A DNA stretch of 64,000 bases from Candidatus Pacearchaeota archaeon (GTDB taxonomy: Archaea > Nanobdellota > Nanobdellia > Pacearchaeales > GW2011-AR1). Of this stretch, positions 2,004-60,308 are shown piece by piece. The stretch is from positions 128,817-192,816 of the forward strand of contig JBAZYP010000001.1 of the NCBI GenBank assembly GCA_041659265.1, read 5' to 3'. The stretch's first letter is position 1. Every line of letters starts with the position of its first letter. Made by a program: the position numbers and the translations under genes. The notes under the pieces are model-generated. The model was not told where the DNA came from. It was given only the letters and a program-made list of their open reading frames with translations, and ran no database searches.

Positions 2004-2657
2004 ATGAAAAATAATACAATCTTAATATCAATCGCATTATTATTAGCAATAAATTTAGTTAGTGCTGGTGTTGGAATAAAATGGGATAAAGAATCTAGTC
2101 TTGTTAAGGAAGGAGAAAAGACCTGCATAACTTATAAGGTATATAATCCCTGGCCTGAAGAAAACTGGGTAACTATTGAATTATCTGAAGAATTAAAACC
2201 AATATTAATTGAACAAGAGGTTGATACTAAATTAATTCCTGCTAATACCCCTAGTTCTCAAGCTATACCTGTAAATTTTTGTTTTAAAGTACCTATTATT
2301 TATGAAGAAGATTGTTTATTAATGGATAAATTCATCTGTAAAAAAGATTATCAGGGTGAAATTAAGAATTATAAAGGGGAAGTTTTAGTTAAATCTGTTC
2401 AAGCTCCAACTAAAATAGGTGGTTCAGGTGGATCGGCTACTGCTATGGCTGTTTCAGCACCTTTAGCAATAAAAGTTGAACCTAAAAATCATGCTAGAAA
2501 TTTTGCTTTGATTTATGGGATAATTGCTTTATTATCTTTATTATTTATAATCATATTATTATATAAAAGATATAGCAGATCAGATCTTGAAAGAGATGAA
2601 GATAGACTCAGGAAATTAAAGGATAGAATCAAAAAAGAAAAATCAAAAAAGAAATAA
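2004..2657 (+). CDS. surface protein with signal peptide and C-terminal TM anchor plus K/R/E-rich tail (hypothetical)
   Basis: The ORF track start at 1983 is TTG; the first ATG at 2004 gives MKNNTILISIALLLAINLVSA, a signal peptide. The C-terminal helix FALIYGIIALLSLLFIIILLY is followed by a charged tail. Confidence 0.55.
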   Translation: MKNNTILISIALLLAINLVSAGVGIKWDKESSLVKEGEKTCITYKVYNPWPEENWVTIELSEELKPILIEQEVDTKLIPANTPSSQAIPVNFCFKVPIIYEEDCLLMDKFICKKDYQGEIKNYKGEVLVKSVQAPTKIGGSGGSATAMAVSAPLAIKVEPKNHARNFALIYGIIALLSLLFIIILLYKRYSRSDLERDEDRLRKLKDRIKKEKSKKK

Positions 2658-2679
2658 TAAAGGATGCAATTAAAATTTC

Positions 2680-4263
2680 ATGAAGAGAATTGGAGAAAAG
2701 AATTCTAGATTTAAGAAAAATAAAATTATTAATGATTTTAAAACAGTTAAACCTAGAAAAGAAACATTATTTTCTCTTGAATCTTCATATTTAATCTATA
2801 AAGTTTTATTTTTTGTTTGTTTAGTTTATTTAATTATATTGTTCTTATCTTTTGCAAGATTTTCAGGTTTTGCAGTATCAACAGTTTCAAGTTTTGGAGT
2901 AGATGTTGGTTTAAATGTATTATATTTTGAATTTAAAGATGGTCTTTCTACAACCGATTTTATTCATATGACTGATCAACAATTAGAAAATGTATCTAAT
3001 ATGACTTTGGAAGTAAGTGGTTCTGGAAAAATTGAATTTTTAGATCATGTTAATTTAGCCTTAGATAGTATTAATGATGTTATAGATTTAGATTCTAATA
3101 TTAATATTTCTAATGCCAATATTAATTATGATGGGAATGCTTTAACTTCTATAAGTGAGAAATCAGCAAGACTTACATTTAATGGAATCACTTTTTTTAA
3201 TCCGCGATTAAGAAAAGATGGTTCTTTATGCACTTTAACCTGTGAATTAGTAAGTTATGGTGGTGGAACTTATATAACTCTAGTTAATTATTCTGGGAAT
3301 TATGTTTTAGAAGAAACTCCTTATTGTGGAGATAATACGTGTAATTCGAATGAAGGTGAAACTTGTGGAAGTTGTGTAAATGATTGTGGTTTTTGTCCTG
3401 ATGTAACTCCACCAGTTATAACTACACCAAGTACTTCTGCACCAGCAAGCGGAGGAGGTGGAGGGGGTGGAGCTGCATTTGTTAGTTCAGTAAGTACTAT
3501 ATTTGTAAAATCTTCTTTATTGTTTGATAAAGAACTTATTAAATTATCTTTAAAACAAGGAGAAAGTTCAACCGAGTATGTTTATATCTCTAATGACGCT
3601 TTAAATGATATATTTGTTAATTTAACTTCTTCTTCACTTGATAATTTTTTATTAATCCCTGAACCAGGTTTAACAATAAAATCAAAACAATCAGTTAAAG
3701 TTAGATTGGATTTTAATGTTAAAGAAACAGAAAATCCTGATTCTTATTTTGGAAAAATCAATCTTAAAAATTCTGATGGTTCTAAGAATACAATTTCAGT
3801 GATATTGGATGTAAAAGAAAAAAAACCTTTATTTGATATAAAAACTAAAGTTCAAAGAAAGATAATATTACCGGGTACTAAAATAAAAGCAAATATAGAT
3901 TTAATTAATATGGGAGATTTTAGTAATGTTGATGTTGTACTTTATTATTCAATAAAAGATATGGAAGGAAAGGTATTATCCTTTTCTCAAGAATCATTAG
4001 CTGTGCAAAAAAGATTGTCTGTAACTAGAGAACTTGAAATTCCTATCTATAATGAGGGAGATTATATCTTTTATTCAACGGTTACCTATGCTAATACTAC
4101 TGCAATATCTTCTGATCATTTTAAAATAGCATTACAAGAAGAATTTCCTATAAAATTGAATGATCCAAGACTTATTTCTTTAGTAATTGGATTAATCTTA
4201 TTTATATTATTCTATATTATATATAGATATATTAGAAGAAGGATGCCGAGATATGTAGAATAA
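2680..4263 (+). CDS. large membrane-anchored surface protein (Cys-rich CGDxxC module, poly-Gly linker, Ig/CARDB-like domains, C-terminal TM)
   Basis: An N-terminal TM is followed by an SGFAV motif. Further features are CGDNTCNSNEGETCGSCVNDCGFCP, a GGGGGGG linker, and a C-terminal helix LISLVIGLILFILFYIIY followed by RYIRRR. Confidence 0.6.
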   Translation: MKRIGEKNSRFKKNKIINDFKTVKPRKETLFSLESSYLIYKVLFFVCLVYLIILFLSFARFSGFAVSTVSSFGVDVGLNVLYFEFKDGLSTTDFIHMTDQQLENVSNMTLEVSGSGKIEFLDHVNLALDSINDVIDLDSNINISNANINYDGNALTSISEKSARLTFNGITFFNPRLRKDGSLCTLTCELVSYGGGTYITLVNYSGNYVLEETPYCGDNTCNSNEGETCGSCVNDCGFCPDVTPPVITTPSTSAPASGGGGGGGAAFVSSVSTIFVKSSLLFDKELIKLSLKQGESSTEYVYISNDALNDIFVNLTSSSLDNFLLIPEPGLTIKSKQSVKVRLDFNVKETENPDSYFGKINLKNSDGSKNTISVILDVKEKKPLFDIKTKVQRKIILPGTKIKANIDLINMGDFSNVDVVLYYSIKDMEGKVLSFSQESLAVQKRLSVTRELEIPIYNEGDYIFYSTVTYANTTAISSDHFKIALQEEFPIKLNDPRLISLVIGLILFILFYIIYRYIRRRMPRYVE

Positions 4264-4455
4264 AACTTAGTTAAAAAATACTATTTAGTATTTTTTAGCT
4301 AGATAAGAATGTTAATTTAATTGAAGTGAATTCAATTAAATTAGGTAAAGAATGCCGAGATATGTAGAATAAAACTTAGTTAAAAAATACTATTTAGTAT
4401 TTTTTAGCTAGATAAGAATGTTAATTTAATTGAAGTGAATTCAATTAAATTAGGT
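4243..4455. repeat. perfect tandem duplication (2 x 104 bp, period 109 bp) of the last 7 codons of the 2680..4263 CDS plus two downstream hairpins
   Basis: atgccgagatatgtagaataaaacttag...attaggt occurs at 4243-4346 and again at 4352-4455. It contains the hairpins aaaaatacta/tagtattttt and taatttaattgaa/ttcaattaaatta. Confidence 0.9.
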
Positions 4456-4614
4456 TTAGTTTGATTTGTATGAAATTTTGGTAATATTAATTTTCTAAGA
4501 GATTTTTAATTTAAGAAAGAGACATTTGTTAAAAATTATTAATGGAAATATAAAAATTGTAAAAAAACTTCCCTAATATATTTTATTTGGATAATCGTTA
4601 AATTTATATATGTG

Positions 4615-4628
4615 TATGCATATGCATA
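4615..4628. promoter_or_regulatory. 14-bp perfect palindrome tatgcatatgcata between a TATA-like box and the vapB start (candidate VapB operator)
   Basis: The palindrome was read directly. It lies 4 nt upstream of the ATG at 4632 and downstream of aaatttatata. Confidence 0.3.
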
Positions 4629-4631
4629 TGT

Positions 4632-4862
4632 ATGGTAAAAGTAATTTCTCTTTCAAATGATGCATATGAAAAATTGAAAGCTATAAAAAATGGAAAATCA
4701 TTTTCAGAGGTAGTTGTTGAACTTGTTGAATCTAAAAATAAGAATAAAAAAGACAGAAAAAAGTTTGCAGGAATTTTTAAAGATGATGATGAATGGGAAA
4801 AAATAATGGAAGATATAGATATGGATAGAAATAATTTTAAATTAAGAGAGGTAAAAATTTGA
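4632..4862 (+). CDS. vapB: VapB-type antitoxin (archaeal PF02697-like)
   Basis: The N-terminus VISLSNDAYEKLKAIKNGKSFSEVVVEL matches the archaeal VapB antitoxin pattern. A 4-nt ATGA overlap joins it to the downstream PIN gene. Confidence 0.7.
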   Translation: MVKVISLSNDAYEKLKAIKNGKSFSEVVVELVESKNKNKKDRKKFAGIFKDDDEWEKIMEDIDMDRNNFKLREVKI

Positions 4863-5251
4863 TGTATTGTCTTGATACAAATATAATAGTGAATTATCTT
4901 AGAGGTGATAAACAAACAATTTTTAAAATTAATGAGCTTAATGAAGATTGTGAATTATTTGTTACTCCATTAACTTTATGTGAGTTATATAGGGGAGCTT
5001 ATTTATCTAAAGATTCTGAAATTAAAGTAAGATTAATAAAAGAGTTCATTGGTTCGTTTGTTTTGTTAGAATTTAATGAAAAAGTTTCTCTGGAGTATGG
5101 AAAAGAATATTCAAGATTAAAAAAGCTTGGTAAAATAACTGAAAATATTGATTTGATGATTGCTTGTTTTGCTAAAACTAATAATCTTATTTTAGTTACA
5201 AGAAATAAAAAACATTTTGAAAATATTGGAATTAAAATTGAAAGTTGGTAG
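4859..5251 (+). CDS. vapC: PIN-domain ribonuclease toxin VapC
   Basis: It has an N-terminal LDTNIIV motif with acidic residues spaced as in PIN domains, is 130 aa long, and is translationally coupled to vapB. Confidence 0.8.
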   Translation: MMYCLDTNIIVNYLRGDKQTIFKINELNEDCELFVTPLTLCELYRGAYLSKDSEIKVRLIKEFIGSFVLLEFNEKVSLEYGKEYSRLKKLGKITENIDLMIACFAKTNNLILVTRNKKHFENIGIKIESW

Positions 5252-15184: not shown

Positions 15185-15215
15185 ATTAAGATTTTTTTAA
15201 TTTTATTAATTAAAC

Positions 15216-15388
15216 TATAATTCTATAATTGTACCTTTCTTTCCAACAGATATAACTTTAGTTTTTCCTATCTTTTCTGTAAGACCTTCTTAATTTGCTT
15301 CGCAAGAATAAATTTATAATTCTATAATTGTACCTTTCTTACCAACGGATATAACTTTGGTTTTACCTATTTTTTCTGTTAAACCTTC
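15216..15388. repeat. degenerate tandem duplication (about 74 bp, 7 mismatches, period 99 bp) of the 3' end of the metallophosphoesterase gene
   Basis: tataattctataattgtacctttctt... at 15216 (non-coding copy) matches the real gene tail at 15315. Confidence 0.8.
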
Positions 15389-15931
15389 GGCTTCATGGAT
15401 ATGACCTGAAAGAAATAAATCAGGTTGGAATCTTTCAATAGCTTTTCTTAAAGCATGACTTCCTTCTATACCCGAAAACTCTGATTTTGTTCCAGCTGCA
15501 TGAAGATGACTAACCATAATCTTTTTTTCTAAATCTTTTATTTTATCAAAATCTTTTTTTAATTTTTCATAGGTTTTTGTTTCATTTAATTCTAATTGCC
15601 AATCTGGACTTCCAATTCCAAAAACTCCGACATTATCATAAACTGCATATTTTTTACTTAAGTTTTTTATTCCATACAATTGTGACATGAATTCAATAGT
15701 TTCAGAAGAATCCCAATTACCTGGAACAAAGACCACTCTTTCTCCTTTATCTATAAATGGTTTAAGAAGATTTTTTGTATCAATTGGACTAGTTATATCT
15801 CCAGTAAGTATAACTAAATCTACTTTTTCCCTATAAGCTTTATCTGCAAGTTTTTTTGTTGCAGCTGAATCTCCATGGAAATCTCCTGCTGCTAAAATTT
15901 TAAATTTTCTTTTTTTATTTTGATTTGTCAT
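15314..15931 (-). CDS. calcineurin-like metallophosphoesterase
   Basis: The motifs GDFHGD, GDITS, GNWD, SHLH and GHIHE occur in canonical order. Confidence 0.8.
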   Translation of the reverse strand: MTNQNKKRKFKILAAGDFHGDSAATKKLADKAYREKVDLVILTGDITSPIDTKNLLKPFIDKGERVVFVPGNWDSSETIEFMSQLYGIKNLSKKYAVYDNVGVFGIGSPDWQLELNETKTYEKLKKDFDKIKDLEKKIMVSHLHAAGTKSEFSGIEGSHALRKAIERFQPDLFLSGHIHEAEGLTEKIGKTKVISVGKKGTIIEL

Positions 15932-23176: not shown

Positions 23177-23338
23177 TATCTAGAACATGTTACATTCTTT
23201 TTTGGACAACATACTATCGCCTATTGGCGAGATAAAACTATCTAGAACTTGTTACATTCTTTTTTGGACAACATACTATCGCCTATTGGCGAGATAAAAC
23301 TATCTAGAACTTGTTACATTCTTTTTTGGACAACATGA
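23177..23338. repeat. three tandem copies (62-bp period) of the last 12 codons of nth plus a 26-bp hairpin spacer
   Basis: tatctagaac(a/t)tgttacattcttttttggacaacat starts at 23177, 23239 and 23301, and the third copy is the real gene end. The spacer actatcgcctattggcgagataaaac contains the tcgcc/ggcga hairpin. Confidence 0.85.
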
Positions 23339-24013
23339 ACTTACTGGACATCTTGAACAGAATGGAGAGATGGGCGTGCAAATTGTTCTTCCAAATAATA
23401 CAAATATTCCATTGAATTCAAACCAATATTCTTTTGGTAAAATTTGTTCTAGGACTTTTTCTGTTTGTTCTGGAGTTTTTGTTGATAACCAACCTAATCT
23501 ATTTGGAATCCTATGGCAGTGAGTATCAATAGGTAAAGTTGGTTGGTTGAAAGCAAAATTTAAGACTATATTCGCTGTTTTTGGTCCAATTCCTTTTATT
23601 GAAATTAAATCATCCTTATTATTCGGCACATTACCTTTAAATCTATCAATTAATTCTTTTGAAACGCTCTTTAAAGTTAATGCTTTTTTATGATAATGTC
23701 CTGTTGAATAGATTATTCCTTCTAATCTACCTATTGGAAGATTTAATATTTTTTCAGGAGTATCTGCAACTTTGAAAAGATTTTCTGAGATTTTTTCTGT
23801 TGTTTCGTCTCTTGATCTTAATGATAATAAACATGATATTAATATTTTGAATGGATTAGGATCTTCTTTTCTCATTCGATTTAATGTTGTTCTTTCAGTA
23901 TAATTGAATTCTTTTTCTAAAGTTTGCATAACCTTAGAAATATTTTCTTTAGAATTATATGCAAAGTTATAGTTCCTTCTAATGGTTTTTGTGTATTCAC
24001 TCCTCTTTATCAT
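23300..24013 (-). CDS. nth: endonuclease III (HhH-GPD DNA glycosylase, 4Fe-4S)
   Basis: It has the HhH motif IKGIGPKTANIVL, DTHCHRI, and the C-terminal cluster C-x6-C-x2-C-x5-C. Confidence 0.9.
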   Translation of the reverse strand: MIKRSEYTKTIRRNYNFAYNSKENISKVMQTLEKEFNYTERTTLNRMRKEDPNPFKILISCLLSLRSRDETTEKISENLFKVADTPEKILNLPIGRLEGIIYSTGHYHKKALTLKSVSKELIDRFKGNVPNNKDDLISIKGIGPKTANIVLNFAFNQPTLPIDTHCHRIPNRLGWLSTKTPEQTEKVLEQILPKEYWFEFNGIFVLFGRTICTPISPFCSRCPVSSCCPKKNVTSSR

Positions 24014-24133
24014 GTTTCATAGGGTCTTTTTTTGTTTTTAAAGTTTTAGATGTTATTATTCAAGTTTTCAATATAAAAATGGGATTTCAATTACATTTTT
24101 AAATCAAGTTTTTCTTAAGTTTAATGAAGACAT

Positions 24134-24208
24134 GGATGCGTAGCTCAGCCTGGTTAGAGCACCGGACTCTTAATCCGGGTGTCGGGAGTTCAAATCTCCT
24201 CGCGTCCA
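24134..24208 (+). tRNA. tRNA-Lys (anticodon CUU), no encoded CCA
   Basis: I folded the cloverleaf by hand. The acceptor stem is GGAUGCG/CGCGUCC, the D arm is GCUC..GAGC, the anticodon stem is CCGGA/UCCGG with loop CUCUUAA, the T arm is GGGAG UUCAAAU CUCCU, and the discriminator is A. Confidence 0.9.
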
Positions 24209-24370
24209 GTTTTATTTAGAGATTTTCACTCTTACAAACAAGTATGTTTGTAAGATCCTTAACAATTTATTATGAAAATAAATTCTTGGGAACATTCAAA
24301 ACAGGCATGTTTTGAAGTTTTCAAATCTCCTCAGAGTCCAGTTTTATTTAGAGATTTTCACTCTTACAAA
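24189..24370. repeat. direct duplication (about 50 bp, period 131 bp) of the tRNA-Lys T-loop/3' end plus downstream sequence
   Basis: ttcaaatctcctcgcgtccagttttatttagagattttcactcttacaaa at 24189 matches ttcaaatctcctcagagtccagtttta...cttacaaa at 24320. Each copy is followed by a hairpin (cttacaaaca/tgtttgtaag and tacaaatca/tgatttgta). Confidence 0.8.
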
Positions 24371-24524
24371 TCATTGATTTGTAGGCATTAAAAAAATATC
24401 GAAATTTTTTAGGCATATTATATATTTAAAAACAAAATTAAGGTAGATTATATATTATTTAGTAACTATTATAAAATGGTAAAAAGGAAAGTTTTAAATA
24501 CCCCATAATAATCATTTTTATAAG

Positions 24525-26634: not shown

Positions 26635-26750
26635 TGATATATTTTATTCAAGTAGCTTTAAATCTTATATTCTATAGAATTACTATTAGTGGTATTCTCA
26701 ACTCGAATACCTTTAATTAAATGAAGAATTATTATTTAGATACCATTAAA

Positions 26751-27059
26751 TTAATGGTATTCTCGCCAAACATGTTTGCATTTGGTGCATCTAAAGAAAC
26801 GTGTTTCAGCTTCATCACCTGCTCTAGTTTGAGAGGTCCAGAAATACGCTTCTTTATTTGAGCATTTAGGGCAATTTGCATTTGTAATTGGAAATACATC
26901 TGTTTCTTTGTCTTTTATAAAACCAACCTCTAATCTAGAATCAATTTTTTCAGAAGATTCTATTTTAATCTTTCCTTTGGATTTATGGTTGCAACGAGGA
27001 CATCTAAATTCTTTATTCTTTTCAACTAACACACACCCACATTTTGGACAAAATTCCAT
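26751..27059 (-). CDS. tfs: transcription factor S / RNA polymerase subunit M (TFIIS-type zinc ribbon)
   Basis: The N-terminal Zn ribbon is CPKCG...CPRC. The C-terminal TFIIS ribbon is CPKCSNKEAYFWTSQTRAGDEAETRFFRCTKC. Confidence 0.85.
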   Translation of the reverse strand: MEFCPKCGCVLVEKNKEFRCPRCNHKSKGKIKIESSEKIDSRLEVGFIKDKETDVFPITNANCPKCSNKEAYFWTSQTRAGDEAETRFFRCTKCKHVWREYH

Positions 27060-36783: not shown

Positions 36784-39700
36784 ATGGCCTATAAAAGATA
36801 TTTTAATATTAATGGGAAAAAATATGGCCCGTATTATTATGAGTCATATAGGGATTCATCTGGAAAGGTAAAAAAAAGATATGTGAAAGTAATTGAGGAA
36901 GATAAAAAAAGTTTTACTCCTACAGATTTTTTCTCAATAATTAATAATAAAAAATTATATTTAATTTTAGGAATATTATTTTTAGCATTAATATTTGGAT
37001 TTTTTTTAATGAATAATAATTCTAATGAAGTAACTAAATCAAATGCAGCTAATTCTAAATTATTAGGCGGTTTTACAGGTTATGTTGTTTCAGAAATAAG
37101 TGAAGAAGAAATTTTGCAGAGTTATAAAAATGATAAAGCAGATTTATCTATAAAAGAACCTAAAAAGATTTTTGGTAATATTGTTTCTGAAAATAAGAAT
37201 AAAAGGATGGATTTTAGCTTATCTAGTGGAGAGATAAGAGTTTATTTTGATTTATTGAATTATAGTAATTTTGTTAGTAATATTGAAGAAAAGATAATTA
37301 ATGGCGAAAGTTCTCAAGTAGGGAGTAGTCAAATTAATAATCCTGGATTAACTGGTAATGTAGTTAGTGAAGAAGAAAATACTAGTGTTGATAATGGTAA
37401 TTTAGAAGAAAATATAATTGAAGAGAATAATTCTAGTAATAAAATTAATGAAAATGATAATGAGCAAAATTTGGTTGATGAAAATTCTATTAATGGTAAT
37501 GAAAATAATGAAATTAAAAATGAAATTAGTATTGATGAAGTTAAGCAAAAGGTTGAAGAAATTGAATCTGAAGAAATTGAAGTTATTGCAGATAGTTCTA
37601 AAGTTGAAGCTGAAAATTTTGATATTAATATAGATAAGATTCCTGATGAAAATGAAAAAGAATCTTCATATAAATGGGGGTATAAAGTTAGATTAAATGA
37701 TTATAAGTTTTTAGCTAAAATTGATGTTACATCTGGAGATAAGATTTCTGTTTATAATGAAAATAGTTTAAAAATTGGTAGAAATATATTATCATTTTCT
37801 GATTTAGAAAGTCAAGGGTATAAAGTTAGTTTTGAAAAACCTAATTTAGATATAGTAGAAGAAAAAGTTGAAGAAGTTGTTCAAGTAATTGAAAAAGAAG
37901 ATACAACAATAGAAAATATTGAAAATGTTACGGAAGAAAATGTTAATGAGAGTCAAGAAAGTCAAGGTAATGAAAGTAGTGTAGAAGAAAATACTGTAAA
38001 TTCTGAAACTTCTGTTGATGAAAGTACTGGTAATGTTGATAATAATGTTGATGAGACTGTTGGAGATGGAGCAGCTAATAATGGAGAAGATACTAGTAAT
38101 GAGAAAAGCGAAACTCCTGTTGAAGAGGGCGCTAATAATGCTGAAGCAAGTAGTGAAGCAAGTAGTGAATCAATAAGTGAAACTACAAGTGACCCTGCAA
38201 GCGAATCTGTAAGTGAATCTTTAAGCGAATCAGTTAGTGAAACTTCAAGCGAATCAACTAGTGAAGGAAGTGTTGAAGCTAGTCCAGGAATAACTGGGGG
38301 AGTTATAAGATTCTTTTCAGGAATAACTGCTAAAATTATTGGAATTGATGAAGAAAGTGTTGTTGAAGATATAAGTTACGAAAACATAATAACTGTTTAT
38401 ATTGAAAGAGATTTTACAAATAATAATGAAGGAATTGAATTAGGGGATATTATTGAAATTGATCCTACATTAATAATTTATATTTCTAAAGCAGAACACT
38501 TGGATAGTTCCAGAAATTATATTAGTGATATCTATGAAAGTGTTAGTGTTTTAGATGGAAATTTTAGTGAAGAAATAAGTGTAGGTGATTTTGTAAGAGT
38601 AAGTTTTGAAGAGAATCTTACCAATGAAAGAGATATAACAATTTATGCAAGAGGAACAAGTGGAGAAAGTTCAATTGAAGTTTATGAAAAAGATGGAAAT
38701 GACGTAATTGCTAAATTTGAAGGAATTAGTGAAGAGAAAGAATATAAAATATATCTTGAAAATTTAAGTTTGTATCAAGATACTTTTGATTTGAAGATTC
38801 TTGATAATCCCGCTAGCTTTGATTATATTGTTGACCCTTTTATAGATAATGGTTCGATGATTCAATATGTTTATGATTGTGGAATATTAAATACAACTGG
38901 GGCTACTTATATTTTAAATCAGTCGATTAATACTACTGGAACTTGTTTTAATATAACTGCTGATAATGTTACTTTAGATGGAAATGGGTATAGTATTGAT
39001 GGGGATGATTCTGGAACAGATTATGGAATTTATGCTAATGGAAGAATTAATTTAACTATTAAGAATTTTAATAATATAACTGATTTTGCTTCTGCAGGAA
39101 TATATTTTAATAATATTAATAATTCATTAATTTATAATTCTAGTATATTATCCAATAATGAGGGAATTCATTTTCTATCTAGTTATAATAACAACTTAAG
39201 CATAATTACGTCTAATAATAATTCACAAAGCGGAATTTATTTTAATACTGCTAATTATAATACTTTATTTAATATTACTTCTAATTCTAATAGTAATGGT
39301 ATTTATTTTAATCCGGGTTCTAATAACAACTTAAGTATAATTACTTCAAATTACAATTCACAAAATGGAATGTATCTTATCTCTTATTCTAATAATAATA
39401 AATTAATTTCTGTAACTTCTAATTCAAATCTTAATTCTGGAATTTATTTTCAATCAAGTTCAAATAACACATTATTTGATTTTACTTCAAATTCAAATCT
39501 GGGTTATGGAATTAATATTTATACTAGTTCAATGAATGTAATAAATAATTTTTCCTTATGGAATTGTTCAAAATCAGCAAGTTTTGCTTGTATAAGTTTA
39601 TTTGGTGTCTTTGATTATGCAAATGATAATTCTCTAATTAATGGTAATATTAATTATACTACTAATTCTGGAATTGCGATTCAAACAATGCCTATGAATG

Positions 39701-42700
39701 GATATGTTCGAAATAATTATTTTAAGAATATAAAAATTGAAAATATTAATGGAAATATCATATATGTGGGGTTACTTGTTGGAGGCGATTCAATTAATAA
39801 TACATTTATTAATGTAAGTTATCAATCATCCGGAGAAGCTTTTTCAGGATGCATTTCAACAACTTGTGAAATTATTAGAAAATGGTATTATTCTGCAAGT
39901 GTTAATGATACAAGAGGATTAGCTGTAGATGGTGCTAATGTTTCTTTGGTAAATGTTAGTGGAGTTAATCAAGGAACATTATTAACAAATGCTTTAGGAT
40001 TAACTAATCTAACTGAAATTATTGAATATGTTAATTATGCTGGAACAAGAACATATTATTCTAATTATACATTAAATGCAAGTAAAAATGGATATGGTGC
40101 TAGTGGACATGTTATGAATTTTTCAATTAGTCAGAATTTATTAAATGATTATTTTATACTTGATAGTACATTAAACATAACTCAAACATATTCTCAAAAT
40201 ATATCTAGCACTGTTGGTGGAAGTGTTGTAAGAGGAGATAATGTAACAATTAATGCAACAATTGTAAATGCAACAATAATTGATAAAGTTTGGATAAAGC
40301 TATGGCAAGGTGCTGTTGGAGTTAGTCAAGTAATATGGCAAGGGTTTATGGCGTTTATTAGTGGAAATTTATGGAGTGTAACAATACCTACAAATATGAC
40401 TTGGAATATTGGAGAGGTAAATTATACAGTTTATGCAAATGATACCATTGGGCAGGAAGTTAATATGAGTTCTAATGTAACAATGTTACAAGGATTTAAT
40501 TTGACACAGTGCGGGGTGTTAGATGTTGAGAATGGTTATTATAGGTTGATGAATAATGTTTCAAATAATGAAACTTGCTTTAATATTACTGCTGATAATG
40601 TGACTTTGGATGGAAATGGGTATTTAATTAATTTTTCAAGTGATAGTGGAGATGCAAATTATGGAATTTATGGAAATCGTATTTCTAATATAACTATTAA
40701 AAATTGTAAGTTTATAGCAAAGTCAAGAGATAGTTATTATGATGATGGTATTTATTTAGCAAATTCAAATTTTTCTTTAATTTATAATAATAGTTTTGAA
40801 AGTTGTTTTAATGGAGTTAATATTGTTAACTCTACATTTATTACCATAGAAAATAATACTCTAAATAATATTGCTACTGGTGTATATTTTTGGGCTGTAA
40901 CTGATTCAAATGTAACTAATAATATAATTAATGATGGTAATTCTTGGTCAGGGGTTGCACTATCAATTTCTAATAGAAGCCTTATATATGGAAATTTAAT
41001 TTCAAATTTTACAGGAATGGTAGTTATTACCGGTGCAATTGATTTATCTAGTTCTTATTACAATAGAATCATTCTTAATAATATAACTGGAGTTTATTCA
41101 GGAATTCAACTTATCTTAAGTAATTATAATAATCTTTCTATGAATAATATTAAAAATATTAATTTGAATGGGGATGGAAGTGGATTAAGGTTAGTAGGAA
41201 ATTATAATTATGTAGAAAAAATATTTATTCAAAATGTATCCTATGGTGATGATGGATTGACTGTTGAAGGAAGTTATAATATTGTAAATGAAACAAGGAT
41301 TGATTTTTCAAGAACAAATGCATTATATTTTAATGAAGCTCAAAATAATTCTTTATATAATATAAATATTACAAATTCAGGATATTTTATTGAAAGTATT
41401 GGTAATAAAAATTTAAATAATAATTTAATTAATGTTACAACAACAAATGATTCAGAACGTCTTTCATTGGGTACAGATTATTTCAGAAAATGGTATTTGG
41501 ATGTTAATGTTAGTAATTTAACTAGCCAACTTGATAATGCTTTAATAAATTCTTCAAATAGAACTGGAAGTTTGCAATATTCTGATTTGACTTCTAGTAG
41601 TGGAATTGTTAGACAAGAGTTAGTAGAATATGTTAATATTAATGGAACTAGGACTTATTATTCACCTTATACTTTGAATGTGACTAAAACGGGTTATAGT
41701 GATTATGGAAATAATAGTGTGAATATAAGTTCGAATAAATGGATGGATGTTAGACTAGATGTTAGTAGTGATGGTTCAATTGGAATAACTCAATGTCAGG
41801 AATTGAATCAGGCAAATACGACTTATGTTTTACAGAATAATGCAAATACAACTGGAACTTGTTTTAATATTACTGCAGATAATGTTACGTTAAATTTAAA
41901 TGGCTTTGATATAATTGGATCACAAAATGGTTATGGTGTTTATGGAACTGGAATTAATAATATAAATATTTCTAGAGGAGGTTATATCAAGAATTTTAGT
42001 AATGCTATTTATTTAATGGATGTTAATTATAGTGTTATTGAGGGTTTAAATATAAATGAGAATAATGGCGTTTATTCTGGAATTTATTTATTACAAAGTA
42101 ATTATAATAATTTAACAGCAATAAATTATAGTTATAATAATGCAAGTAATAATTCTGGACTTTTTGTTGAAAGTTCCTCTTATAATAATATTTGGAATAA
42201 TTATTTTAATTTTAATAATGTGACTCATGCAACTGGTAATCTTTATGGAGCCCCTATATTAGGATTGTATTTAAATTCATTAGGAAATAATATTGAAAAT
42301 TCAACATTAATAAATAATCTATTTATAATGGGCGGAAGTAGTTCTATTCTTGGAGGAGGATTGTTTGGATTATCAAGTGGGTGCAATAATAGTATTATTA
42401 GAAATACCAATATTAGTAATAATTTTATGAATCTTTCTAATTTTATTATTGGTGGAGCAATTGGTTTATATGATAGTTCTAATAATAATATTTCTTCAAG
42501 CATAATTTTTAATAATACTTTTAAATCCACTCAAGCTTTTCGTGGAGGGGCTATAGGTATTCAAGAAAGTTATAATAATATTATTTTATTAAGTTCAATT
42601 AATAATAATTATATTGAAAGTAATACTGTTTCTGGAGGAGTAATTGGTATCGCTTATGGTTCAAATTATAATAATATTTCTTCAAGTTTTATTTCTGGTA

Positions 42701-45700
42701 ACATTGTTAGGGTAAACAGTATGATAGATGGAGGAATAATCGGAGTTGAAGCATCAACTAATTTTATATGGAATAGTACAATTACAAGAAATAATATTAC
42801 TCTATATGATGTTTATGGTGGGGGTGTTATTGGATTAGAATCAAATAATGATGCATTTTTAACTAATATTTCAAATAATAATATTACTATGTTTCAAATT
42901 CATGGTGGAGGGGTAATTGGAACTTATTGGGGAGAGTATGTTAATTTTTCTATTAATACTATAGTTGGCAATATTATTACAATAACGGATTCTATTTATG
43001 GCGGAGGAATAATCGGAATTAGTTCTTATGATTCTAGTTATAACACTATTTTTAATAATATTATTCTTAATAATACTATTTCTAATAGTAATTATGTTAT
43101 TGGTGGAGGGGTAATTGGTATGAATAGTGCTCACTATAACAATATTTCTTTAAGTTTAGTTTCAGGAAATTTAATTAGATTAAATCATGAAGTTTATGGT
43201 GGAGGGATAATTGGAATAAATTATGGAAGGGGAAATAATATTTCTTTAAGTACAATTTCCAATAACAATATAACTAATAATAATGTTTCAGGTGGAGGAA
43301 TAATAGGGTTTATAGGAAGTACTAGCACAAATAATAGTATTTTATCGAGTTCGATAAGTGGAAATAATCTATCTAATTATTATCTAGGTGGAGGAGCTAT
43401 AATTGGTCTTTTTGATAGTTCTTATAATAAATTTATAAATATTTCAATAAATGGTTCTTCAAATTTAGGAAAGGGAATTGGTTTGCAAAGAAGTTCAAGC
43501 TATAACTTATTTAAGGATATAGAAATATCTTATTCTGGAGATTATGCAATCGGAGTAAATAATCATTTAAATGCAAATTCTATCAATAATACTTTTAATA
43601 ATCTTTCTGCAATATATGCTCCAAATGGTTCATTGTATATCTCACAACAATATAATGGAACAAATTTAATTGATATTTCTAATTTAGGAAATTATACAAT
43701 TTTTGGAACTGGTGCAACAATAAATATTGAAAATACTTTATATGGAAAAATTAGTTATATAAATGTTGTAAGTGGATCTGGTACAAATTTCTCGAATGAT
43801 ATTAGAATTGGAAATAATTCAATAACAGTTGAATCTGGAAGTCAAAATGGATTAAATAGAAGTGCGAATTTAAGATTATATGGACTATCAACTAGTTATC
43901 TTAATCCAAAAATTTATAGGAATGGAAATATTATTTGTAATTCAACTACTAATCCATCATGTTATAATTTTTCATCTTTAAATGCTGGAATAGTTATTTT
44001 TAATGTAAGTAGTTGGAGTAATTATAGTATAGGTGAATTGAATGAAACGCTTAATTTAACTCTTAATATAACTCAAACAATTTATCAAAATCAATCTGGA
44101 ACTGTTGGTGGAAGTGTTGTAAGAGGAGATAATGTAACAATTAATGCAACAATTGTTAATGCAACTGTAATTGATAGAGTTTGGATAAAGATATGGCAAG
44201 GTGCCATTGGTGCTTCACAGATAATATGGCAAGGATTTATGGCGTTTATTAGTGGAAATCTGTGGTCGGTTACTATTCCAACTAACTCAAGTTGGAATGT
44301 TGGATTAATGAATTATACTGTTTATGCAAATGATACAATCGGGCAGGAAGTGAATTTGAGTTCTAATGTAACAATGTTACAAGGATTTAATTTGACTGAG
44401 TGTGGGGTTTTGGATCAGGTTAATGGGTATTATAGATTGATGAATGAAATTGAAATTAATGATTCTCCAACAAGTGATTGTTTTATTATCAGTGCAAATA
44501 ATATAACTTTAGATCTTAATGGATTTGGTATAATTAGTAATTGGACTGGTGTAGAAGATGACCCTTGTTTTTTAAAAACAAAATCATTTATTAGATTATC
44601 AAATTCAAATAATTCTAGAATTTTTAATGGTTATGCTAATAATTTTTCAGGATATGGAATTTATGATAGTGGGGCATATGTTTATGGAACAATTATTGAA
44701 AATTTTAGTGTAAATTATGGATGTCATGCTATATTTATGTTAAATAGCGATAATATTTATGTTAATAATATTACTTCAATTGAAAATCTTGGAGGAATTT
44801 ATGCAAATGATAATAATATAATAAAAAATGTTTATTATTATAATAATCATATTGGAGGGATGATTACTACTCGTGGAATTTGGCTCAAAGATAACAATAC
44901 TCTTGAAAATAATATCGTAGTTAATAATGTAAGTTATGGCATAAATGTTGAAGATAATAATACTCTAATAAATAATTTTATTATTAATAATTCAAATGAA
45001 TTATATACCACTGAGCAGGGTAGTTTGGGTCTTCAGAATAATAATTATGTTGAAAATTTATTTATAGATAATGTTATTTGTGGAATAACCTTAGGTTCAA
45101 ATAATACAATTAAATTTTTTAATATAACAAATAGTGATTTTGGTATTTATCCTAAAGAATTAATAACTTATTATACAAATAACACTTTTATAGATGGATC
45201 TATTAGTAATTCAAATATTTTAGATATTAATTTAACAAGATCCTCTCAAACAGTTAAATTTTATTTTATTAATATAAGTTATAATTATTCTAGGGAATTT
45301 GTTAAAGGAGCAAATGTCTCATTAATTCGTAAATGGTATTTGGATGTTAATGTAAGTAATATTACAGGGCAATTGGATAATTCCTTAGTTAATTCAAGTA
45401 ATTCTAGTGGAATATTGCAGGTTTCTACATTGACTGGAAGTAGTGGGATTGTTAGACAAGAATTAACTGAATATATTAATATTAATGGAACTTGGATTTA
45501 TTATTCTCCTTATACTTTGAATGTTACTAAATCTAATTATACTTCTTATGGAAATAATTCAGTTAATATAAGTGGAAATAAGTGGATGGATGTGAGGCTT
45601 GATGTTAGTGGAGATGGAACTATTAGTGTTACAGAATGTCAGGAGTTGAATATTAGTGGAGGATATTATAGATTTGTTAGTGATATTTATGCAAATGGAA

Positions 45701-47673: not shown

Positions 47674-47761
47674 CAATGATACAATTGGGCAGGAAGTTAA
47701 TTTGAGTGGTAATTTTACGACTGTTGAAAATTATAATGTTACTCAGTGTGGGGAATTGGGA
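47107..47761 (+). repeat. about 650-bp intragenic repeat, copy 2 (modules C+A); contains the frameshift
   Basis: It is near-identical to 39871..40525. The reading frame breaks at 47661/47662. Confidence 0.85.
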
Positions 47762-50700
47762 CAAGAAAATGGGGTTTATAGATTGATGAATGATGTTAAT
47801 ACTAATAGTACTTGTTTTAATATAACTGCGGATAATGTGACCTTGGATTGTAATAATTATATAATTAATTTTTCTAAAGGAGGCCCACAATTTAGTAATG
47901 GGGTTTATTCTAATCAAAATAGATCAAAGATTTATAATTGTAAAATTTATCAAGGAGACTCAAGATTTAATCAATATAATAGGGGAATATATGTTATATC
48001 TAGTGGTAGCGAGGGAATTGAAATAATTAATAATTTTATTTATGTTTTTGATTATCGTGGAATTGAATTCCAGTTTTCAACTTTTAGCAATTCTCCTATG
48101 ATAATAAAAAATAATAGAATAAATAGTACTTGGGAGAGAGGTATTATGATTCAATGGGGGGCTAGTAATATCAATATTTCTAATAATACTATTAATTCTT
48201 ATGATACGGGGATCTATTTTAATGGGAATAATAGGAATATTAATTGTGAAAATAATTTTGTTAATACATTTGGTACTTCTGTTGGCTTATCTTATTCAAG
48301 TGGAGTAAATTCAAGTTTTATTTCAAATTATATATATGGGGGCATGGATATGAGTGGAATTGCTATTATTAAAGATAATTATGTAAAAAGTATTAATAAT
48401 ATTGGTATTTATCTAGCTGCTCAAAATTCTGTTATGATAAATAATACTGGAATTTCTTTAAGTAATTTTGGAATTGGTGTTTATGAATCTAATATTATTC
48501 TTATAAACAATACTGCATCATCAAATTCATCTTTTGCAATAGAGGTTTATACTAATAATAATATTTCAATTATTAATCAAAATGTTACTGGAGTTTCTTC
48601 AAGTAGTGGTGGATATTTGATTTCTGATGGTAATAATATAATAATTAAAGATTGTATTACAATTCAATATGGTTATTCTGCTATTAATGTTACAGGTAAT
48701 GTAAACAATCTTACTATTCTTAATTGTTCCTATGATTCTTCTAAGGAGTTTGTAAAATTAGGAGGTAATCTAACTAGAAACTGGTATTTGGATGTTAATG
48801 TAAGTAATTTAACCGGTCAACTTGATAACGCGCAAGTTAATTCAAGTAACTCAAGTGGAATATTGCAAGATTCTGATTTAACTACAAGTAGTGGAATTGT
48901 TAGACAAGAATTAGTTGAATATGTTAATATCGGTGGAAGTAGAACATATTATTCACCTTATACTTTGAATGTGACTAAATCTAATTATACTTCTTATGGA
49001 AATAATTCTGTTAATCTAAGTGGAAATAAGTGGATGGATGCGAATCTTGATATATTTGAAGAAATTCCTATAATAATAAACATTCTTTATCCAGTTAATG
49101 GAACAATTTATAATTATAATGTAAGTAATATTAATTATAGTGTTAATGTAACTGATGGTTCTTGTTGGTATAGCTTGAATAGTGGAAATACCAATTCTAG
49201 TGCTCTAGCTTCTGGAATTAATTTTACAAATGTTGTTTCAGTTGAAGGAATAAATAATTGGATAGTTTATTGTAATGATAGTTCTGGAAATATGAATTCT
49301 AGTTTAGTTATATATTATCTTAATAGGAGTTTGAATATTACTCAAACAATTTATCAAAATCAATCTGGAGTTGTTAGTGGAACAGTAGTTAGAGGAGATA
49401 ATATTACAATTAATGCAACAATTGTAAATGCAACTGTAATCGATAGATTTTGGATTAAGATATGGCAAGGTGCCATTGGTGCTTCACAGATAATATGGCA
49501 AGGATTTATGGCCTTTATATCCGGAAATTTATGGAGTGTTACAATACCTACAAACTCAAGTTGGAATATTGGTGAAGTGAATTATACGGTTTATAGCAAT
49601 GATACAATTGGGCAGGAAGTTAATTTGAGTGGGAATTTTACTACATTAGCGCAAAATCCTCTTGTTATTATAATCGGTTATCCTGTGAATAATTCTCAAT
49701 ATAATTATTATGTTAATTCTATTAATTATAGTATAATTGAAAACTCGACTTCTGTTGATAAGTGCCGGTATAGTAATTCAAGTGGAAATTGGAATTCTAG
49801 CATAGTTAATGCTGGAAATAATTTTACAAACGTTAGTACAAAATTAGGTGAAAATAATTTTATTATTTGGTGTAATGAAAGTAATGGAAATACTAATTAT
49901 AGCTTGGTTAATTTTAATGTTACAATAGATTCATATTCTCCTGTAATTGATAACTTTAGTGAATTATTTGTTTGTGAAGATGAGGCACTTAATTATTATT
50001 TTAATGTAAGTGATGATGATTCTAATTTGGATATTTCAAATTATAGTATTATTCCTGAATATCCTCTTAGTCCTTTTTATTTAAATTATAATTCTCAATA
50101 TAATTTAACTAAAGAGATATTTTATTTGTTTTCTGGAATTATAACTAAAAGTAATGTAGGTGGAATATTATCCGGATATAGGATTTATAATGAAAATATT
50201 AGTTTTACTGATGGGGAATCTATTACTCGAAGAAATTTTAATATAACTTTGATTGGTATAAATCATGCACCGATTATTGAAAATATTCCTAGTAATATAA
50301 CTCTATATATAAGTGGCGGAAATACAACTTATAATTTTATTGCTAGTTCAAGTGATATTGAAGATGGAACTAATCTCGATTCTAATCTTACATATAATAT
50401 TAGTTTTTCAGCTACAAATTTATTTAATATAGGTTCTAATGGAAGTATGTTTTTTAATGCAACAAACTCTAGTGAACTTGGAGTTCATGACGTAACAATT
50501 TGTGTCATTGATAGAAATCTAACAAATATTCATACAAATATTAGCTATTATTGTTCTAATTCTGGATTATCTAAATCTAATTGTACAACATTTTCTTTAA
50601 TAATAACAAATGAAAATCGGGCACCACAGATATTAAGTTATTATCCAAATCTAAATTTAAGTGTAAATGGAAATAGTGCTATGATGTTTAATGTTAGTTC

Positions 50701-51591: not shown

Positions 51592-52623
51592 TTATCTTGT
51601 TGTTACAATTATTTTGTTATCAGGAGTTTTTATAAAAGTATGTTCTGCTTGAGAAACAGGTTTTTTTGATACTTCAATTAATTGAGGATAACTATGTACA
51701 ATACCTGTATCAACAAGTTCTTTTAAACCTAATTTTGAGATATTTCCAAATTCTTCTTGAAGTTCTCTTAAAGAAAATGGTAAGGTTTGTTTTTTCATCC
51801 AGATGTATTCTAGAATTTTTCTTGCTGTAGGGCCTCTTGGAGTTCTTGGATTAGCTACTCTATAGATATTACTTGGAGGACCATCATGAATTTTTCCTTC
51901 ACCAGTTGTAGCAAAAGGTTCTATCGCATATGCACCTGGATCAATTCTATGAGGACTATTATTAGCATGGTTTGGAATTGTTTCACCTGCATGAATGGTA
52001 TAAGGTGCTAAAGAATGACCTGAAAGATTAACTATTGGTGAAAATCCTCTCTTTTCTATTGATTCTTGAATAGTTTTTCCAATATCATTTAATGTAGGAT
52101 CTTTATCTAAAAGTTTAATAGCATTTTCTAAAGCTTCTTCTGAAGCTTTTATTAAACTGGTGAATTTTTTATCATCTGTTAAATCTAAAGAAAAAGAGGT
52201 ATCTGCAATAAATCCTTCAATATGAATCCCTAAATCAACTTTTAATAATCCTGTTGCTTTTGTTTCATCTTCTAAAGTTGGATGATAATGGGCAGCAACT
52301 TCGTTAATTGATAAATTTACTGGAAAAGCAGGTTCTCCTCCTAATTCATATGTTTTTTTCTCAATCATCTGTGCAATTTCAAGAAGAAGCATATCTTTTT
52401 TTATAATGGGTCTTGCATATTCTTTTACTTTTATTGCAATTTCACCAGCTTTAATATAATTATTAATTTCCTTATCAATCTCTTTAGTAATTTTATTTGA
52501 AACTTTGTTTAATTTTTCTATTTTCTTTTCAGTTGTTTTGTTAGGTTTATCTGTTTTAGATTTTACAGGTCCACCTAAATGCTCTCTAATTCCATTATTT
52601 CCTCCGTATGATTTTTCTGTCAT
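51592..52623 (-). CDS. map: methionine aminopeptidase, type 2, with Lys-rich N-terminal extension
   Basis: The motifs AAHYHP, DLGIHIEGFIADTSF, GHSLAPYTIHAG, AIEPFATTG and AEHTF are present. About 50 extra basic N-terminal residues precede the core. Confidence 0.9.
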   Translation of the reverse strand: MTEKSYGGNNGIREHLGGPVKSKTDKPNKTTEKKIEKLNKVSNKITKEIDKEINNYIKAGEIAIKVKEYARPIIKKDMLLLEIAQMIEKKTYELGGEPAFPVNLSINEVAAHYHPTLEDETKATGLLKVDLGIHIEGFIADTSFSLDLTDDKKFTSLIKASEEALENAIKLLDKDPTLNDIGKTIQESIEKRGFSPIVNLSGHSLAPYTIHAGETIPNHANNSPHRIDPGAYAIEPFATTGEGKIHDGPPSNIYRVANPRTPRGPTARKILEYIWMKKQTLPFSLRELQEEFGNISKLGLKELVDTGIVHSYPQLIEVSKKPVSQAEHTFIKTPDNKIIVTTR

Positions 52624-52852
52624 GTAATATTTAACCTCATTAAATGAACATCAGAAAAATTGATAATTTTTCTGTCATGAATAGTCTAAAATTTTGGGGT
52701 ATATAAATCTTTAAACTTGCAAAACCTATTAAAATATGCTTGAAAAAGGTGAAAGAAAAGATTGTTAATAAAAGGCCTATTAGCCATATTAGGTATTTTT
52801 TTAAATTAAATAGATAAGTTTTTATAGGCTCTAAATAAATGATATTTTAAGG

Positions 52853-53124: not shown

Positions 53125-53256
53125 AAATTAAAAATTTCTTTATAAAATTTTTAGATAAACTATCTAATCCTACGCTCTTTAGCCATAAAACAAATTAAAA
53201 ATTTCTTTTGAAATTTTTAGATTAATTATCTAATCCTACGCTCTTTAGCCATGAAA
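53125..53256. repeat. tandem duplication (about 66 bp x 2) of the 3' end of the 53226..53669 gene plus terminator hairpin
   Basis: aaattaaaaatttcttt.(t/g)aaaatttttagat.aa.tatctaatcctacgctctttagccat occurs at 53125 and 53192. The second copy holds the real stop codon. Confidence 0.8.
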
Positions 53257-53669
53257 TTGGTGATTTTTTCACCTGTTGCTTTTCCACAACCAAGAAGTTC
53301 ATTGTTATTCTTTAAGATTTTCCAATTTTTATCTGATTGTATATATAATTCATTACCTTTTAGCCATTCAAGGGCATTTTTATTATCAATTTCAAGTATA
53401 TTTTTTGATATTTGCGATTTAAAGAATTGTACACCATCAAAAGTCAGTCTTAATTTATCCACTTCCCATTTTGCAAAATATAATCCTGCTGTTTCAATTC
53501 TAAGATTAGTATCAAGATTATAAAGTTCATTATTTGAAAGATTTGAAGTAAATATACGTAATTTTTCTTCTCCAAATTTTAAAACTATAAATGGTAGATG
53601 TTCTATTCCATATTGTTCGTTTAATTGTTCTAATAATCTTTTTTTATCAGATGGAGAGAGGATTTTCAT
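53226..53669 (-). CDS. stand-alone PUA-like RNA-binding domain of the RsmF/NOL1-NOP2-Sun type (PF13636-like), tentative
   Basis: The C-terminus LLGCGKATGEKITNFMAKERRIR resembles the conserved LG.GK...g.lKN..Pk..R end of RsmF-type methyltransferase C-terminal domains. It is the last gene of the operon that starts with the Sun-family methyltransferase. Confidence 0.5.
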   Translation of the reverse strand: MKILSPSDKKRLLEQLNEQYGIEHLPFIVLKFGEEKLRIFTSNLSNNELYNLDTNLRIETAGLYFAKWEVDKLRLTFDGVQFFKSQISKNILEIDNKNALEWLKGNELYIQSDKNWKILKNNNELLGCGKATGEKITNFMAKERRIR

Positions 53670-60016: not shown

Positions 60017-60308
60017 TTTAAAGAAAACTCTTTTATTAACAATAATTTTTTCATTTATTGCAATTTTTATTGCAAGTTATATAAGAATAACTGCTATATC
60101 TCAATTAAATCTCTATTGTTCATATTTAAATCCATTAATAATTGATATTTTAGCAACTTTATTTGCTATATTTTTAATATTAGAGGGTTCTTTTAGGATA
60201 TATGAACATCCTAATGCTATATTAAAAAGACAATATACTAGGATAATGAGGATTGTAATAGGGTTTGCAATATTAACTCTTCATACATTTGAATTTTTCT
60301 ATGGTTAA
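60009..60308 (+). CDS. small membrane protein (tandem paralog 1)
   Basis: It shares the ...I.DIL....AIFL..EG..RI.EHPNA.LKRQ.TRI.R...GF.I..LH motif with the next gene. Confidence 0.5.
   Translation: MNNLKKTLLLTIIFSFIAIFIASYIRITAISQLNLYCSYLNPLIIDILATLFAIFLILEGSFRIYEHPNAILKRQYTRIMRIVIGFAILTLHTFEFFYG

Follow-up and report, generated by a model that had tools for sequence, protein, structure and literature searches.

A 64,000-nucleotide (nt) stretch of the genome of a Candidatus Pacearchaeota archaeon (contig JBAZYP010000001.1; the whole stretch is called the window here, and its first letter is position 1) carries five short local duplications, each of which straddles the 3′ end of a protein-coding or tRNA gene and leaves a detached copy of the gene's tail downstream of the working one. 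These duplicated gene tails are a real, recurrent, and heritable class of event and a variant of a known mutational process, and we found no evidence for a new genetic system. Most likely they are harmless scars of errors in DNA copying or repair. The explanation that we favor, with a probability of roughly 0.55, is hairpin-associated template switching or break repair, followed by a selection filter, expansion and contraction of the repeats, and allelic recombination.

Duplicated gene ends and their presence in reads

The window has about 26% G+C and is 91% coding by a simple map of open reading frames (ORFs). It encodes the archaeal factor TFS, a tRNA-Lys, and giant surface proteins, and the homologs of its proteins sit in metagenome-assembled genomes (MAGs) named Pacearchaeota, Nanoarchaeota, or Woesearchaeota; its own source is a MAG out of a mixed community. 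We compared the window with itself by BLAST, keeping local direct repeats with E < 1e-3, and took periods from Tandem Repeats Finder (TRF), so that our survey of duplications in this genome covers the 64 kb of the window. Eight local direct repeats were recovered. Two lie in coding sequence (an internal repeat of a giant gene and a pair of adjacent paralogous genes), one is a second alignment inside the array at 23177, and the remaining five (at 4239, 15216, 23177, 24189, and 53125; cases 1 to 5) each straddle a gene or tRNA 3′ end.

An earlier note on this DNA had described case 1 as a perfect 104-nt duplication of a gene tail plus two hairpins, with the first copy alone joined to the ORF, and had listed recurrences at 15216, 23177, 24189, and 53125. 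Exact matching and TRF confirmed the first claim, and self-BLAST recovered all four recurrences, each over a 3′ end. Read in gene orientation, all five cases have the order tail-spacer-tail, with spacers of 1, 17, 26, 81, and 1 nt in cases 1 to 5, respectively. The immediate tandem arrangement that the note had given for all of them therefore holds for cases 1 and 5, which are strict tandems, but not for the spaced cases 2, 3, and 4. Repeat periods are 62, 66-67, 99, 109, and 132 nt. The proximal, gene-attached copy (R), the distal copy (R′), and the host genes are as follows.

2680..4263, + strand: 527-amino-acid membrane/surface protein gene, host of case 1 (ORF list, translation)
4239..4346, + strand: case 1 R, with gene tail, stop, hairpin 1, and hairpin 2 (self-BLAST, TRF, folding)
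4348..4455, + strand: case 1 R′, exact over 4352-4455; A4347 is the 1-nt spacer
15307..15388, − strand: case 2 R, the last 24 codons, stop, and 7 nt of 3′ flank of a metallophosphoesterase gene (15314..15931)
15290..15306, − strand: case 2 spacer, 17 nt, with the small palindrome CTTGCGAAG
15208..15289, − strand: case 2 R′; period 99, in frame
23300..24013, − strand: HhH-GPD glycosylase gene, host of case 3
23177..23336, − strand: case 3, tail (36 nt)-hairpin spacer (26 nt)-tail-spacer-tail; period 62, 2.6 copies (TRF, self-BLAST)
24133..24209, + strand: tRNA-Lys(CUU) gene (ARAGORN), host of case 4
24189..24238, + strand: case 4 R, which starts in the tRNA T-loop and includes 29 nt of trailer past the 3′ end
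24239..24319, + strand: case 4 spacer, 81 nt, with two hairpins, the second (24295-24316) ending 3 nt short of R′
24320..24370, + strand: case 4 R′, 96% identical
53226..53669, − strand: gene with a PUA-like domain, host of case 5
53192..53256, − strand: case 5 R, last codons (MAKERRIR*) plus an AT hairpin (53196-53219)
53125..53190, − strand: case 5 R′, 92% identical, one indel

The host protein of case 1 has hydrophobic helices at its N terminus and C terminus and matched no Pfam family above the cut-off. Positions 4243-4346 and 4352-4455 are identical over 104 nt; in the wider repeat (4239-4346 and 4348-4455), 107 of 108 positions match, with G4242 versus A4351 as the sole mismatch, and TRF reported a period of 109, 2.0 copies, and 99% identity over 4239-4455. 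The unit comprises the last six codons and stop (MPRYVE*) of the gene and two hairpins (4267-4302 and 4313-4343; minimum free energy, −27.4 kcal/mol; z = −5.3), and only the proximal copy is continuous with the ORF. With CAGAG in place of CGCG in its acceptor-stem part, R′ of case 4 does not make a functional tRNA end. In case 5, the coding-derived part is identical between the copies, and the differences are confined to the noncoding part.

A JGI contig (L066, the same as L074) is 100% identical to 2263-4346 and continues with base 4456, so that it carries a single case 1 unit and reads ...GAAG/AAGGATGCC...TTAGGT/TTAGTTTG. It is either a reverted allele or an assembler collapse, and its sample may not be independent of run X2 (below). 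For cases 2 to 5, no single-copy allele was found. Judged against this single-copy form, the case 1 duplication has no microhomology arms of 4 bp or more. Its junction reads GGT/AAAGA/ATGCC and thus holds a 5-nt imperfect filler, AAAGA, which together with the next bases resembles AAGAATG 40 nt upstream. With filler and no arms, case 1 fails the defining feature of microhomology-mediated tandem duplication (MTD). Short imperfect filler without microhomology is typical of template-switch junctions, and the case 1 junction fits that type.

The window was found in two groundwater metagenome runs, X1 (2022) and X2 (2018, from a different study), and the read-level evidence comes from the Logan k=31 contigs and unitigs of both. 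In each run, the unitigs break exactly at the borders of the case 1 repeat, and a 65-nt unitig (4317-4381) spans the junction. The 104-nt unit is a separate unitig, with a depth of 20.7x against 7.9-9.1x for its flanks in X1 and 6.3x against 3.0-4.8x in X2, or about 1.6-2.5 times flank depth. Given a junction unitig and a unit at about double depth in two runs, the duplication is present in the reads. A unitig (24209-24365) bridges case 4 in both X1 and X2, and one 4,924-nt contig spans case 5 in X1. Cases 2 to 5 were reproduced by independent assemblers (Logan and MEGAHIT k141; contigs L001, L070, L071, and L072): the case 2 structure recurs in the independent Logan contig L001, and cases 3 and 4 recur in L070, an ENA contig assembled with MEGAHIT k141. 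Assembly artefacts, arising from unmerged contig overlaps or mixed strains, would be conceivable for a MAG taken from a mixed community, and one JGI contig does show case 1 as single copy. The junction unitigs, however, come from two runs of different studies and years, the unit has about double depth, and independent assemblies agree, so that this reading is refuted for practical purposes. The duplications did not collapse into artefacts, an outcome that the earlier note had allowed for.

Copy number differs between samples. The window and X1 both show 2.6 units at case 3, compared with 1.6 units in X2, L070, and L071; the X2 form lies on a single unbroken contig that is 62 nt shorter. The earlier note had proposed a check for such heterogeneity, and it was found, in the units of case 3 and in the single-copy case 1 of L066.

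Hairpins at the junctions and the favored mechanism

The 36 nt directly upstream of the distal copy fold with −11.1, −1.6, −8.4, −9.3, and −6.6 kcal/mol in cases 1 to 5, respectively. Ranked against about 9,400 intergenic positions, the values for cases 1, 3, 4, and 5 fall within the strongest 0-4% (P combined by Fisher's method, ~1e-6), and in these same four cases the distal copy begins 0-5 nt past the end of the hairpin. After removal of the distal copies, the duplicated genes rank 1, 2, 4, and 22 of 33 by folding energy of the 3′ flank (Mann-Whitney P = 0.018), a ranking that leaves out case 3, whose collapsed flank is too short. A general enrichment of hairpins at 3′ flanks was not found (3′ versus 5′, P = 0.055; 3′ versus coding, not significant). 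Since 3′ flanks as a class fold no better, strong hairpins are rare and mark the duplicated sites. This does not bear out the earlier suggestion of a process acting on transcript and gene ends: strong hairpins are no general gene-end feature, and because they sit at the duplication-bearing genes, nothing shows an action on transcripts. Template switching or slippage at hairpins, also named as a candidate in that note, fits the hairpin adjacency.

In the mechanism that we favor, short local duplications with units of 62-132 nt would arise from template switching in replication or break repair, preferentially beside strong DNA hairpins in this Pacearchaeota (DPANN) genome. On reaching the far base of a hairpin, a polymerase or repair intermediate would recopy the preceding 35-110 nt, which would yield either a strict tandem (cases 1 and 5) or the order tail-hairpin-tail (cases 2 to 4). 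The few strong hairpins lie just past stop codons, where a duplication running from inside the gene to beyond its stop would spare the gene. As only gene-sparing events would survive in a genome that is 91% coding, they would be seen as duplicated gene tails. The repeats would then persist for long periods, expanding, contracting, and homogenizing through unequal recombination or slippage, and the gene-attached copy could be overwritten by homologous recombination with a diverged allele, as in case 2. The selection filter, the homogenization, and the initial step of template switching or break repair are our inferences.

A ruler of fixed length, as would be set if entire Okazaki fragments of about 80-91 nt were religated, is hardly a credible substitute for template switching. 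The general size range of Okazaki fragments in archaea and eukaryotes does cover the units. Loss of Rad27/FEN1 also raises the rate of short tandem duplications in yeast (bioRxiv 10.64898/2026.02.28.708716). Periods of 62-132 nt in the window and of 34-137 nt in relatives, however, show no fixed length.

Alternatively, the spacers could be mobile elements, miniature hairpins whose insertion at gene and tRNA ends would create unusually long target-site duplications. The layout of cases 2 to 4 and of a relative's event (L052, below) resembles an element with its target duplication, including one at a tRNA 3′ end, and hairpin 2 of case 1 has one other copy, about 91% identical, in the same metagenomes. 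But no second copy of the case 2, 3, or 4 spacer turned up in the window, in the 844 kb from relatives, or in X1; cases 1 and 5 have 1 nt between their copies; the spacers are mutually unrelated; and the single-copy allele of case 1 already carries both hairpins. We regard such elements as highly improbable. The earlier statement that the spacers share no common sequence and represent no single mobile element stands, as neither the spacers nor the duplicated units have dispersed copies in the window, the relatives, or X1.

To what extent the 3′ location itself calls for an explanation depends on which events are lost. In a model in which only gene-internal duplications are lost, 27-32% of the remainder are expected to be 3′ only, and P(5/5) is 0.002; with start-codon-spanning duplications lost as well, 3′ events make up a length-dependent 48-81%, and P(5/5) is 0.097. 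The 3′ bias is thus largely the selection filter plus hairpin location, and it is weakly significant. For comparison, 58 loci of relatives (844 kb) were scanned by script for local direct repeats. Events there were distributed 6:3:5 among 3′, 5′, and intergenic positions (Fisher test against the window, P = 0.04). The same kind of event therefore occurs in relatives, at lower density. Two of these events lie at the end of the same metallophosphoesterase gene as case 2, in Pacearchaeota/Nanoarchaeota MAGs: a 49-nt two-hairpin unit in 2.2 copies (L045, 10587-10694) and a 70-nt exact copy 37 nt beyond its source, past the real stop (L052, 10527-10703). Of the earlier claim that such events at gene ends are far above chance, the gene-end part mostly dissolves under the selection filter (P ~0.1), and a density about fivefold over relatives is what stands.

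Silent divergence in case 2 and the age of the copies

The two copies of case 2 are 88-90% identical. Over the tail, 8 of 75 nt differ (T/C, A/T, A/G, T/A, C/T, C/T, T/A, and A/G), and all eight differences are silent (seven synonymous and one TAA to TAG), so that both copies encode EGLTEKIGKTKVISVGKKGTIIEL*. In simulations, a silent-only outcome had a P of 2.5e-6 when all changes fell on a neutral copy and of 1.2e-4 when the gene copy was under selection and the distal copy was neutral. R′ is in frame with the gene, but two stops intervene, and it has no start codon of its own. On these grounds, and with the opposite strand closed, an antisense or read-through ORF was rejected as the cause; a remnant of a tandem paralog was also rejected as the origin, as 0 of 58 relatives show two adjacent gene copies. 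A third rejected candidate was a repeat pair of the diversity-generating retroelement type: the case 2 mismatches are not confined to adenines, and the other cases are near-identical. No reverse transcriptase was found among the ten duplication-adjoining ORFs, the only ones scanned against Pfam.

The silent-only differences imply that one case 2 copy diverged as part of a working gene. The 3′ flanks can also be aligned (ATTTATT[CTTGCGAAGC]AAATTAA and TTTAATT[AATA]AAATTAA), as expected for two alleles of one unit of about 99 nt. Most likely, the duplication arose in situ and a diverged allele later replaced the copy attached to the gene; alternatively, homology-facilitated illegitimate recombination may have produced the arrangement in one step, with the resident tail remaining behind.

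This one-step alternative can be extended to a general displacement of gene ends by recombination between genomes. A linear fragment from a sister or a diverged relative would recombine within the gene, and its hairpin end would join illegitimately upstream in the resident tail; the incoming tail and hairpin would become the working gene end, and the resident tail would be left behind. The case 2 copies, with the same 24-residue tail and stop, eight silent differences, and no replacement, are what recently functional alleles should look like, and displacement would also explain why the spacer hairpin of the tail-spacer-tail cases is unduplicated and why the junction lies at the hairpin end. 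The tail peptide is conserved across homologs, so diverged donors with the same peptide exist, and other alleles of the case 2 tail are present in the same metagenomes. Displaced 3′ ends at type VI secretion system (T6SS) effector loci are reported and ascribed to such recombination (PMC5361080). However, no gene-attached donor allele of R′ was found in the metagenomes; cases 1, 3, and 5 are near-identical, and case 1 is a strict tandem with both hairpins, for which in-situ copying is simpler; the distal tRNA end of case 4 is damaged in a nonfunctional way; and the two-step history explains case 2 equally well. We therefore view displacement as possible but doubtful. A related idea in the earlier note, footprints of integration and excision that regenerate the gene end, is not supported: no element, integrase, or shared spacer goes with it, and the spacers are 1-81 nt long. 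The part of it that stands is the involvement of a diverged functional allele in case 2.

A further candidate is a specially active, hairpin-anchored process at gene ends in this Pacearchaeota lineage, in which an event at the base of an extruded 3′ hairpin, either cleavage or stalling, would be repaired by copying the tail from a second template. The sister chromosome as template would give identical copies, and the DNA of a diverged relative would give the silent-only case 2. We consider such a process unlikely. If it were true, gene tails would be entry hot spots for foreign alleles and old tails their fossils, and stacked tails would be a readable record of inter-genome recombination in DPANN archaea.

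A third run, X3 (2025), is the source of a diverged relative that is 88% identical to the window over the case 1 gene end (3900-4263) and about 95% identical over 4597-4900. A 111-nt X3 unitig runs from hairpin 2 through the junction GGTAAAGAATGC, as in the window, into the pseudo-tail TTTAGATATGTAGAGTAA, with identities of about 83% for the pseudo-tail and 92% for the hairpin. Unitig breaks in X3 coincide with the case 3 borders, and a 90-nt unitig at 1.7x depth reads tail-spacer-tail with an altered spacer. At case 4, a single X3 contig covers the tRNA together with the 81-nt spacer and extends 30 nt into the distal copy (93% identity). Because the architectures of cases 1, 3, and 4 are common to the X3 relative, they predate a divergence of 5-12%. 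At orthologous genes of relatives with about 80% amino acid identity, no duplications were found.

Conservation of cases 1, 3, and 4 in this relative, in spite of a coding density of 91%, raises the question of whether the hairpin-plus-tail modules are kept for a putative function, as doubled termination or RNA stability elements between convergent genes with the pseudo-tails as passengers. The hairpins are strong, and cases 2, 3, and 5 do lie between convergent genes. Yet copy number varies among samples without other change, the relatives at about 80% amino acid identity lack the duplications, only the tail and not the hairpin itself is duplicated in cases 2 to 4, and in X3 the case 1 pseudo-tail has diverged more than the hairpin. 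A retained function thus seems to us very doubtful.

Several observations weigh against template switching plus a selection filter as a full account. The density of 5 events in 64 kb compares with 1.06 expected from relatives, an approximately fivefold excess (P = 0.005) that a mere filter does not explain, although part of it may be technical, since MAG assemblers collapse perfect repeats. The tail-spacer-tail order of cases 2 to 4 and L052 needs two template switches or a templated insertion, as a single slippage is insufficient. Case 2 is not an in-situ copy with neutral decay (P = 1e-4 to 2.5e-6), so a second process is needed. In spite of their age, the case 1 copies have 0 differences in 104 nt, for which P is 0.0004-0.008 without homogenization; such identity is unlikely unless the copies were homogenized or later re-extended. 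Long persistence in a streamlined genome could mean that the repeats are useful. Finally, the sample is five events in one window.

Known systems and minor sites

The nearest described events are those in surveys of MTD and of non-microhomology tandem duplication (NMTD) that span bacteria, archaea, and fungi (bioRxiv 10.64898/2026.02.28.708716; PNAS 2026, PMC13167724), which share with ours the head-to-tail duplication of single-copy segments of 10-500 bp, frequent reversion, expansion, selection-driven depletion from coding sequence, and a replication-linked origin. Cases 1 and 5 are short head-to-tail segments, and copy number here is reversible and expandable, with the caveat of a possible collapse in the single-copy case 1. 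The preprint reports that short tandem duplications form de novo in both archaea and bacteria, that reversion to one copy is over 10 times more frequent than formation, and that 25-30% of variable loci lack microhomology (bioRxiv 10.64898/2026.02.28.708716), a fraction into which case 1 fits. Unlike the surveyed events, case 1 has a 5-nt imperfect filler and no microhomology arms, cases 2 to 4 have spacers, the junctions are associated with hairpin ends (the word "hairpin" occurs 0 times in the preprint), and the density is unusually high for the lineage.

Template-switch and templated-insertion junctions at stalled forks and breaks (events of the fork stalling and template switching/microhomology-mediated break-induced replication [FoSTeS/MMBIR] type; templated insertions at double-strand breaks, PMC11724301; template switching in rad27, PMC5677150) resemble ours in local recopying, short filler, and secondary structure; they were described in yeast and human cells and mostly give shorter or inverted insertions, and for our events any enzyme or break is putative. 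At the orphan effector ends of the Vibrio cholerae T6SS (PMC5361080), the old tail likewise lies directly downstream of the new one with the divergence of a functional allele, as in case 2. Those ends carry different toxin domains followed by immunity genes, whereas case 2 has an identical peptide, a 75-nt remnant, and no cargo.

Duplicated attachment (att) sites also include direct repeats of the 3′ portion of a tRNA from the T-loop, as in case 4, and of protein gene tails. They differ in that here 1-81 nt, with no ORFs, separate the copies, which leaves no element or integrase, and in that the case 4 identity runs into the tRNA trailer while the tRNA part is altered. An att footprint at tRNA-Lys was rejected given just 81 nt between the copies, and the small ORFs next to tRNA-Lys do not look like an integrated element, since small ORFs matched in number and size occupy the syntenic place in a relative (L003). 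Mycobacterial interspersed repetitive units (MIRUs) are intergenic units of 40-100 nt that include the stop codon of the upstream gene and vary in copy number among strains. Like our repeats, they are variable and overlap gene ends; unlike ours, in which each locus has a unit made of its own tail, MIRUs form a dispersed family. A literature search for gene-tail duplication at hairpins as a described phenomenon found nothing specific.

If the hairpin link extends genome-wide, it would be a concrete cis determinant of short-duplication sites in an archaeal genome, whereas published tandem-duplication surveys stress microhomology without mention of hairpins, and it would show how new 3′ untranslated sequence and repeat arrays are born in compact DPANN genomes. 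Case 2 shows that identity between copies is no clock: near-identical copies can be old, and diverged ones can testify to the replacement of an allele, a point to bear in mind when duplications are dated or serve as strain markers. Strains of uncultivated archaea can also be followed from sample to sample with these loci as natural variable-number markers.

Two further sites had been listed in the earlier note. The site at 26686 amounts to a 15-nt imperfect repeat within a hairpin: a 15-nt motif of the TFS gene tail (GAGAATACCAYTAAT; gene 26751..27059, − strand; 3′ flank, 26682-26765) is found again 66 nt further downstream, where it forms the right arm of the hairpin GGTATTC...GAATACC, and is too short to call a duplication. 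The 5′-end version at 52611 holds as a 14-nt exact repeat of a start-codon region (CATGACAGAAAAAT; 52611-52624 equals 52666-52679), 55 nt upstream of the start of an M24 peptidase gene (51592..52623, − strand), with an adjoining palindrome, CAGAAAAATT/AATTTTTCTG, that could pair with either 14-nt copy. The site may be a 5′ duplication scar or a translational switch.

A second locus in contigs of similar depth in X1, X2, and X3 is about 91% identical to 4398-4453 (56 nt, hairpin 2 of case 1) and has unrelated flanks; this hairpin may be a small dispersed repeat. Immediately downstream of case 1 (4632-5251) are a VapB-like small ORF and a PIN-domain (VapC-like) gene, a pair that is about 95% conserved in the X3 relative compared with 88% for the upstream surface protein gene. 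After the distal tRNA-tail copy of case 4, 105 nt (24349-24455) are replaced in the X3 relative by 188 unrelated letters, which marks a variable spot. Two giant ORFs (3,629 and 1,292 amino acids) at 36784-51580 have internal 66-135-nt repeats and probably encode surface proteins. At 60009-60642, two adjacent small paralogous genes (99 and 117 amino acids) share an 85-nt stretch that is 81% identical (60163-60247 and 60491-60575). Beyond the second gene lies a 3′ hairpin that is among the strongest of the window, yet there is no tail duplication.

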